DNA of 8,207 nt. Source: Giardia intestinalis. Lineage: Eukaryota. The DNA is taken from NCBI GenBank assembly GCA_000002435.2, contig AACB03000019.1. One strand, 5' to 3'. Positions 1 through 8,207 of this stretch are shown in pieces. The notes under the pieces are model-generated. The model searched no databases, was not told the origin of the DNA, and worked only from the letters and a program-made list of their open reading frames with translations. A program made the translations under genes and the position numbers. Position 1 is the stretch's first letter. Each line of letters opens with the position of its first letter.

Positions 1-3000
1 CCGCGCTGATCGGCGCCGGGTGTGCGACATGCACAGGAGAGAACGACGGACAGACGTGCCTTACGTGTAATCCCAAGAGAACAAGGTGCAGCCTGGCGGA
101 AAGAAATGCGGAGTCAGGCTGCCGGCGAACTCCACCCTAAGGAGAGCGTGTGCGAGTGCACGGAGGATACAGGCCGAACGCCCCAGGGCCAGTGCGAGCA
201 AGACCCCCGCCGCGGTGTGTGCGCCCGCGCTGATCGGCGCCGGGTGTGCGACATGCACAGGAAAGAACGACGGACAGACGTGCCTTACGTGTAATCCCCA
301 AGAGAACAAGGTGCAGCCTGGCGGAAAGAAATGCGGAGTCGGCTGCGGGAACTGCCAACCCCTAAGGAGAGCGTGTGCGAGTGCAACGGAGGATACAGGC
401 CGAACGCCCAGGGCCAGTGCGAGCAAGACCCCGCCGCGGTGTGTGCGCCCGCGCTGATCGGCGCCGGGTGTGCGACATGCACAGGAGAGAACGACGGACA
501 GACGTGCCTTACGTGTAATCCCAAGAGAGAACAAGGTGCAGCCTGGCGGAAAGAAATGCGGAGTCGGCTGCCCGGCGAACTCCACCCCTAAGGAGAGCGT
601 GTGCGAGTGCAACGGAGGATACAGGCCGAACGCCCAGGGCCAGTGCGAGCAAGACCCCGCCGCGGTGGTGTGCGCCCGCGCTGATCGGCGCCGGGTGTGC
701 GAACATGCACAGGAGAGAACGACGGACAGACGTGCCTTACGTGTATCCCCAAGAGAACAAGGTGCAGCCTGGCGGAAAGAAATGCGGAGTCGGCTGCCCG
801 GCGAACTCCACCCTAAGGAGAGCGTGTGCGAGTGCAACGGAGGATACAGGCCGAACGCCCAGGGCCAGTGCGAGCAAGACCCGCCGCGCGGTGTGTGCGC
901 CCGCGCTGATCGGCGCCGGGTGTGCGACATGCACAGGAGAGAACGACGGACAGACGTGCCTTACGTGTAATCCCCAAGAACAAGGTGCAGCCTGGCGGAA
1001 AGAAATGCGGAGTCGGCTGCCCGGCGAACTCCACCCCTAAGGAGAGCGTGTGCGAGTGCAACGGAGGATACAGGCCGAACGCCCAGGGCCAGTGCGAGCA
1101 AGACCCCGCCGCGGTGTGTGCGCCGCGCTGATCGGCGCCGGGTGTGGCGACATGCACAGGAGAGACGGACAGACGGCCTTACGTGTAATCCCAAGAGAAC
1201 AAGGTGCAGCCTGGCGGAAAGAAATGCGGAGTCGGCTGCCCGGCGAACTCCACCCCTAAGGAGAGCGTGTGCGAGTGCAACGGAGGATACAGGCCGAACG
1301 CCCAGGGCCAGTGCGAGCAAGACCCCGCCGCGGTGTGTGCGCCCGCGCTGATCGGCGCCGGGTGTGCGACATGCACAGGAGAGAACGACGGACAGACGTG
1401 CCTTACGTGTAATCCCCAAGAGAACAAGGTGCAGCCTGGCGGAAAGAATGCGGAGTCGGCTGCCCGGCGAACTCCACCCCTAAGGAGAGCGGTGCGAGTG
1501 CAACGGAGGATACAGGCCCGAACGCCCAGGGCCAGTGCGAGGCAAGACCCCGCCGCGGTGTGTGCGCCGCGCTGATCGGCGCCGGGTGGCGACATGCACA
1601 GGAGAGAACGACGGACAGACGTGCCTTACGTGTAATCCCCAAGAGAACAAGGTGCAGCTGGCGGAAAGAAATGCGGAGTCCGGCCTGCCCGGCGAACTCC
1701 ACCCCTAAGAGAGCGTGTGCGAGTGCAACGAGGATACAGGCCGAACGCCCAGGGCCAGTGCGAGCAAGACCCCGCCGCGGTGTGTGCGCCCGCGCTGATC
1801 GGCGCCGGGTGTGCGACATGCACAGGAGAGAACGACGGACAGACGTGCCTTACGTGTAATCCCCAAGAGAACAAGGTGCAGCCTGGCGGAAAGAATGCGG
1901 ATCGGCTGCCCGGCGAACTCCACCCCTAAGGAGAGCGTGTGCGAGTGCAACGGAGGATACAGGCCGAACGCCCAGGGCCAGTGCGAGCAAGACCCCGCCG
2001 CGGTGTGTGCGCCCGCGCTGATCGGCGCCGGGTGTGCGACATGCACAGGAGAGAACGACGGACAGACGTGCCTTACGTGTAATCCCAAGAGAACAAGGTG
2101 CAGCCTGGCGGAAAGAAATGCGGGAGTCGGCTGCCCGGCGAACTCCACCCCTAAGGAGAGCGTGTGCGAGTGCAACGGAGGATACAGGCCGAACGCCCAG
2201 GGCCAGTGCGAGCAAGACCCCGCCGCGGTGTGTGCGCCCGCGCTGATCGGCGCCGGGTGTGCGACATGCACAGGAGAGAACGACGGACAGACGTGCCTTA
2301 CGTGTAATCCCCAAGAGAACAAGGTGCAGCCTGGCGGAAAGAATGCGGAGTCGGCTGCCCGGCGAACTCCACCCCTAAGGAGAGCGTGTGCGAGTGCAAC
2401 GGAGGATACAGGCCGAACGCCCAGGGCCAGTGCGAGCAAGACCCGCCGCGGTGTGTGCGCCCGCGCTGATCGGCGCCGGGTGTGCGACATGCACAGGAGA
2501 GAACGACGGACAGACGTGCCTTACGTGTAATCCCAAGAGAACAAGGTGCAGCCTGGCGGAAAGAATGCGGAGTCGGCTGCCCGGCGAACTCCACCCTAAG
2601 GAGAGCGTGTGCGAGTGCAACGGAGGATACAGGCCGAACGCCCAGGGCCAGTGCGAGCAAGACCCCGCCGCGGTGTGTGCGCCCGCGCTGATCGGCGCCG
2701 GGTGTGCGACATGCACAGGAGAGAACGACGGACAGACGTGCCTTACGTGTAATCCCCAAGAGAACAAGGTGCAGCCTGGCGGAAAGAAATGCGGAGTCGG
2801 CTGCCCGGCGAACTCCACCCCTAAGGAGAGCGTGTGCGAGTGCAACGGAGGATACAGGCCGAACGCCCAGGGCCGTGCGAGCAAGACCCCGCCGCGGTGT
2901 GTGCGCCCGCGCTGATCGGCGCCGGGTGTGCGACATGCACAGGAGAGAACGACGGACAGACGTGCCTTACGTGTAATCCCCAAGAGAACAAGGTGCAGCC

Positions 3001-8207: not shown

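Follow-up and report, generated by a model that had tools for sequence, protein, structure and literature searches.

What does a Giardia intestinalis contig that consists of nothing but one tandem repeat represent, a satellite, a decayed gene or the core of an intact one, and how far does its length tell us the size of the array from which it derives? The question is raised by an 8,207-nt stretch of G. intestinalis DNA (contig AACB03000019.1 of assembly GCA_000002435.2), hereafter called the window, which we analysed at its full length. [quoted passage not shown] The feature is already known, as an annotated gene of an ordinary kind. Beyond the number of its repeat units it has little significance, since the current WB reference already has this gene annotated and the biology of repeat-bearing VSPs has long been established.

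The window is a single tandem array

The initial annotation had described the whole window as one 225-bp array with no unique sequence, and both parts of this description are borne out. Tandem Repeats Finder returned a single array at 1-8207 (plus strand), in which a period of 225 bp (75 codons) recurs 36.5 times; matches amount to 98% and indels to 1%, for a score of 15456. Autocorrelation shows a peak at lag 225 (0.54 identity, for a baseline of about 0.28 calculated from the base counts of the window) and others at lags 450, 675, 900 and 1125. An exact 13-mer used as an anchor occurs 36 times in the window, at distances of 220-229 bp. An end-to-end alignment of the window with a perfect tandem built from the consensus unit covers 36.55 units and contains 88 differences, and the number of bases of the window that fall outside the periodicity is 0. 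The site GGCGCC (NarI/KasI), which had been expected once per unit, was counted 36 times, as the expectation requires. The GC content is flat across the window at 65%, and a search of both of its strands against Rfam matched 0 families.

The initial annotation had also held that the flanks and the true length of the array could not be read from the window, and this still stands: there is no VSP leader or 3' tail sequence in it. No part of the GL50803_0050290 leader (ATGTTACTAGTACTTCTCGCAAGTTGTATAGCTGTACAAGCC) is present in the window. The warning that assemblers mis-size such arrays and that their copy number changes agrees with the literature on vsp genes of Giardia (PMC2996952). What had been missed was the 75-codon open reading frame (ORF), which is the repeat of a known VSP gene. 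The units had been called near-identical, but it had been overlooked that the differences between them are nearly all indels of the kind produced by sequencing errors.

The unit encodes a module of an annotated VSP

The array is coding sequence and not an anonymous satellite. The unit of 225 bp corresponds to 75 codons, frame 3 of the plus strand is stop-free, and the error-free centre of the window translates to perfect repeats of ALIGAGCATCTGENDGQTCLTCNPQENKVQPGGKKCGVGCPANSTPKESVCECNGGYRPNAQGQCEQDPAAVCAP. As a representative of the 75-aa module we took the copy at 3351-3575 on the plus strand (CAP...DPAAV), on which the positions of the cysteines were recorded and which served as the query of the HMMER scan described below. 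The module has 10 cysteines (13.3%), two CXXC motifs (CATC and CLTC) and one CXC motif (CEC), and the peptides VQPGGK and ESVCECNGGYRPNAQGQCEQDPAAVCAPALIGAGCATCTGENDGQTCLTCNPQENK lie inside the repeat. The unit thus has the Cys-rich composition of VSP ectodomains (about 11-13% Cys, with many CXXC).

A protein search with the repeat gave no matches other than Giardia VSPs. The cluster of the best match includes KAE8302825.1 / XP_037901808.1 (hereafter P0004), a protein of 2153 aa from WB clone C6 named "VSP [Giardia intestinalis]", whose repeat is 100% identical in protein sequence to the 75-aa unit of the window. P0004 is made of a 19-aa leader (MLLVLLASCIAVQAAVCAP), 27.9 perfect 75-aa units and a conserved 43-aa tail (PSNTNKSS...) with a transmembrane (TM) segment and CRGKA. 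At the nucleotide level, the published 5' 399 nt of GL50803_0050290 begin with 55 nt of leader, and the remaining 344 nt are repeat and 100% identical to the consensus tandem of the window. This gene, whose product is P0004, lies on chromosome 3 (NC_051858.1), has 6462 nt, and encodes a signal peptide, 1 TM segment and CRGKA, with 283 Cys (13.1%), 56 CXXC and 28 CXC in total (10.1101/2022.03.07.483299). In a table of the same preprint the leader MLLVLLASCIAVQAAVC is annotated as a signal peptide. Two further elements reported there are outside the window, namely the initiator CAATGTT at the start codon, which fits YAATGTT, and TACTTAGGTAGTAAACGCGT, the conserved VSP motif that Table S6 lists for this gene (10.1101/2022.03.07.483299).

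The C-terminal TM segment and CRGKA that are typical of VSPs are absent from the repeat-only window and present both in P0004 and in a one-unit paralogue, each of which carries the identical unit. The paralogue is GL50803_00102178 (XP_001704930.1; hereafter P0001), a protein of 128 aa whose leader and tail are identical to those of P0004. Residues 15-128 of P0001, which comprise the unit and the tail, match the VSP family PF03302 with 67.6 bits (cut-off, 31.4). The GenBank protein accessions of P0001 and P0004 are consecutive. P0001 corresponds to vsp156 of Adam 2010, a chromosome 3 gene with a product of 128 aa and no noted tandem repeat (PMC2996952 supplement). The gene identifier 0050290 is missing from the tables of Adam 2010, and those of the 2007 assembly had the one-unit version only (PMC2996952); the long array has therefore apparently been annotated only from the 2020 PacBio assembly on.

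The WB genome has a one-unit version (128 aa) and a 28-unit version (2153 aa) of one VSP, a pairing that parallels the one of vspA6-S1 and vspA6.

Some results weigh against this assignment. Three concatenated units, scanned with Pfam, remained below every cut-off and gave noise only; because of this, the family assignment is taken from the homologues. A PF03302 scan of P0004 itself reported no match either, and it is identity to the annotated VSP, together with the one-unit paralogue, that would make the window part of a VSP. The nucleotide form of the comparison is limited to the first 399 nt of GL50803_0050290. Likewise, the window lacks a leader, a tail and any other unique sequence. Sequence identity is what would place it at the locus on chromosome 3, and the genome may hold another copy of the array. 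The number of units also differs, with 36.5 in the window, without flank, against 27.9 in P0004. Finally, a literature search by gene identifiers found no paper naming GL50803_0050290 and no data on its expression or surface localisation.

Differences between units and the nature of the contig

Measured against a perfect array, the sequence of the window departs by 50 deletions and 34 insertions (84 single-base indels) and by 4 substitutions, and 10 of its units are exactly identical. Homopolymer runs account for 43% of the bases and contain 40 of the 50 deletions. Most of the insertions (29 out of 34) copy an adjacent base. Certain homopolymers were struck in several copies of the unit, such as C4 at unit positions 71 and 135 (6 times each) and A3 at position 104 (5 times). 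Counted per 500 bp along the window, the events number 13, 11, 10, 11, 4, 4, 1, 0, 0, 1, 5, 4, 1, 1, 12, 8 and 2. The left end (1-2000, plus strand) is rich in errors: its 2 kb contain 45 events (indels or substitutions), mostly homopolymer indels, and its frame is broken repeatedly. The right end (6948-8207, plus strand) is also rich in errors, mainly single-base insertions, and the last three bins are those with 12, 8 and 2 events. The longest error-free stretch is found at 3132-4840 (plus strand), and includes 7 perfectly identical units at 3133-4707, in frame from 3135.

We infer that the differences between units are residual errors of a long-read consensus, in a small contig with thin read support at its ends, because mutational decay is dominated by substitutions and would ignore the ends of contigs. 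The true units are probably all identical. Similar material has been described before: the analysis of WB PacBio data by Xu 2020 encountered homopolymer frameshifts and produced about 30 small contigs of <33 kb from unmapped reads, which are rich in repeats and gene families (PMC7000408). The properties of the window match those of these left-over contigs. With no flanks and with frame-breaking indels at its ends, the window is likely a small, repeat-only and imperfectly polished long-read contig, and not a pseudogene. Repeat-only left-over contigs of this sort should be seen as parts of a placed gene, and not be tallied as extra sequence or as pseudogenes; the frameshifts in them would stem from errors in sequencing.

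Alternative readings and the number of units

The broken frames could also be taken at face value, as the real frameshifts of a decayed VSP pseudogene array, given that the frame is interrupted about 80 times outside 3132-4840 and that Xu 2020 annotated 208 pseudo-VSPs in the WB genome (PMC7000408). However, natural decay consists mostly of substitutions, of which we count 4 against 84 indels, and these indels occur in homopolymers, strike matching positions of the unit in different copies and are concentrated at the ends of the contig, while the consensus is 100% identical to an intact gene. We thus consider decay very improbable, and rejected it on the ratio of indels to substitutions and on the coding identity. 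The same grounds led us to reject a non-coding satellite or minisatellite without a protein product, whose probability we regard as negligible. The uniform head-to-tail structure, the lack of unique sequence and the lack of a matching RNA family are what one would expect of such an element, but not a unit length that is a multiple of three with an open frame, nor a peptide that is identical to one in an annotated VSP, which bears a signal peptide and a membrane anchor. Furthermore, single-unit orthologues of the isolates P15 and DH retain, respectively, 82% and 77% protein identity to the unit, and its ten cysteines are all among the invariant columns of the aligned sequences.

If the window is the core of GL50803_0050290, or of its allele or copy, its length has still to be accounted for. 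It could be an artefact of the assembly, in which noisy repeat-only reads from a true array of 28 units were overlapped out of register. This fits with a window that consists of repeat only, whose length is near that of the mean WB PacBio read (about 8.7 kb, as calculated from 3.6 Gb and 411,835 reads; PMC7000408) and whose error density climbs at both ends, as happens when few reads are behind the consensus; it also fits with the separate assembly of left-over reads in the WB project (PMC7000408). Yet, the error-free central 1.7 kb implies real support by multiple reads, the number of repeats is known to vary between alleles in other repeat-bearing vsp genes, namely vspA6 and vspC5 (PMC2996952), and structural variants within an isolate are more frequent at loci of VSPs (PMC7048089). 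We take an artefact to be a serious possibility, while leaning somewhat against it. The variation between alleles and the structural variants speak instead for a longer allele or copy, with at least 37 units and a product of some 2,800 aa or longer, which would either exist next to the 28-unit one in the tetraploid genome or derive from a different isolate of assemblage A. The excess of flankless units over those of P0004 points in the same direction, and the repeat copy numbers of vsp genes in assemblies have been called 'approximate' owing to condensation (PMC2996952). However, the length of repeat-only contigs is unreliable, and the case is built on a contig and not on reads, which leaves the longer allele or copy with a chance only a little under even. 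That the source array truly has at least 37 units, either with the WB reference gene (28 units) being undersized or with alleles differing by at least 9 units, is a claim that we put forward tentatively and find rather more doubtful than probable.

The implications of this claim concern the size of the antigen. If it is true, an array of at least 37 units would amount to at least 8.3 kb of repeat and to a VSP with some 2,800 residues or more, above any VSP size that we have seen tabulated. Alleles that are at least 9 units apart would make it a size-variable antigen, which has not yet been described for the GL50803_0050290 locus. The excess of 36.5 over 28 units draws attention to the length of this locus and to its allelic variation, and it is the number of units that sets how large the expressed antigen is.

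Relatives of the module

We searched 1.84 billion representative proteins exhaustively with HMMER, using one unit as the query. The scan matched only 11 protein clusters. Six of these have CRGKA at their end, and 4 others are truncated or frameshifted VSP-like proteins. Arrays of homologous modules of 73-76 aa were found in the proteins that we label P0005 (13 copies), P0006 (4), P0007 (3), P0008 (2) and P0010 (2), and the WB genes GL50803_0050289 and GL50803_0050363 have arrays of modules that are 48-49% identical to the unit of the window. In P0015, a VSP without repeats, the matching module directly precedes the transmembrane tail. On this evidence, the unit is the membrane-proximal module of VSPs, which seems to have undergone independent amplification in many vsp genes. 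In line with its being a gene of a eukaryotic parasite, there was no match in the contigs of JGI metagenomes (protein, exact 38-mer) nor in those of prokaryotic genomes (same 38-mer).

Three of the matched proteins have peculiarities of their own. P0014 (376 aa) is the sole HMMER match that is unlike a Giardia VSP, and its likeness is confined to the unit's second half; it is made of repeats of about 30 aa (C-P-x-NS...C-x-C-N-x-G-Y...Q-C) and has a weak Teneurin-EGF match (31.6 bits, for a cut-off of 65). P0013 (173 aa) has an in-frame VSP module between Arg/Ala-rich out-of-frame translations of the same repeat. It is a frameshifted fragment of an array of the P0005 type, an artefact of the same class as the broken frames of the window. 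P0006 (451 aa) has an extension of 81 residues ahead of the VSP signal peptide MLVGFLLVCATVLA, and its annotated start was probably mis-called.

Predicted structure and antisense frames

The structure of the module was modelled with AlphaFold2, which gave a mean pLDDT of 55.0 for three units given as a single sequence and of 52.5 for P0001 with an alignment of 4 rows. The models, which are of low confidence (pLDDT 52-55), have short beta-hairpins and, in P0001, an N-terminal helix at residues 2-14. A sequence search of the PDB with P0001 returned only chance matches to transmembrane helices (E > 0.08).

Of the three minus-strand frames of the unit, two contain no stop. This strand has an ORF of 844 aa at 2375-4909, which overlaps another of 579 aa at 3045-4784 (minus strand), and a Pfam scan of both found nothing at or above the gathering cut-off. 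We rejected them as genes, and consider them a by-product of a GC-rich unit that is poor in stops. A gene caller could wrongly annotate these antisense frames.

Proposed biology

According to our interpretation, each 225-bp unit encodes one Cys-rich module of 75 residues, a homologue of the module that ordinary VSPs carry in membrane-proximal position. The complete gene leads from a leader or signal peptide of 19 residues, through the array, to the conserved TM segment and CRGKA tail, and nearly the entire exposed ectodomain is one reiterated, epitope-bearing module. Judging from the literature on VSPs, the gene would be one member of a repertoire whose expression is mutually exclusive. The perfect identity of the units suggests that they are, or have recently been, homogenised by unequal recombination or slippage. 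Since each unit spans an integral number of codons, changes in copy number would shift the size of the antigen in steps of 75 residues and leave the frame intact.

Comparison with known systems

In Giardia WB, some 30-36 of the vsp genes bear repeats (PMC2996952; 10.1101/2022.03.07.483299), in which units of 105-516 bp are present in 2 to >20 nearly identical copies within the ectodomain (PMC2996952). Tandem-repeat VSP genes, their allelic variation in copy number and their collapse in assemblies have been known since the 1990s (PMC2996952). The window follows this description, with an in-frame unit of 225 bp in 36.5 copies that are identical barring indels. Its closest counterpart, GL50803_0050290, shares with it the length of the unit, the frame, 100% of the protein sequence of the unit and the DNA over the 344 nt of repeat compared. 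It differs from the window in having 27.9 units within a gene of 6462 nt, whereas the window counts 36.5 units, is devoid of leader and tail, and contains indel errors. The one-unit gene GL50803_00102178 resembles the long gene in leader, module and tail, but has a single unit and no array.

The arrays of GL50803_0050289, GL50803_0050363, P0005, P0006 and P0007 are related to that of the window by the motifs AGC-x-TC...TC-x-xC...CP-x-NS...C-x-C-x-GY and by the spacing of their cysteines. They are 48-51% identical to its unit and stand directly before the TM segment and CRGKA tail. They differ from it in having their own sequences, fewer copies (2-13) and an independent amplification. A more distant likeness concerns the cEGF/EGF-like domains (PF12662): in P0005 and P0015, the stretch that matches the C-x-C-N-x-G-Y half of the unit scores as cEGF-like, whereas the unit of the window has no significant Pfam match, and the likeness in fold is drawn from models with a pLDDT of 52-55.

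Two other repeat-bearing genes of Giardia WB are alike in architecture. In vspC5 (vsp90; 105 bp, about 25 copies), a short leader is followed by near-perfect in-frame repeats that reach the conserved 3' region. This same layout is found in the reference gene with the identical unit, but not in the window, which has no flanks. The gene vspA6 (CRP170, vsp67; 195 bp, about 22-25 copies) also has a short leader and then many near-perfect in-frame repeats, but about 1.3 kb of non-repeat sequence lies beyond its array. Both genes differ from the window in the length of the unit, which is 225 bp here, and in its sequence. The repeats of vspA6 are immunodominant, and this gene has a relative with about one copy of the unit, vspA6-S1 (PMC2996952).

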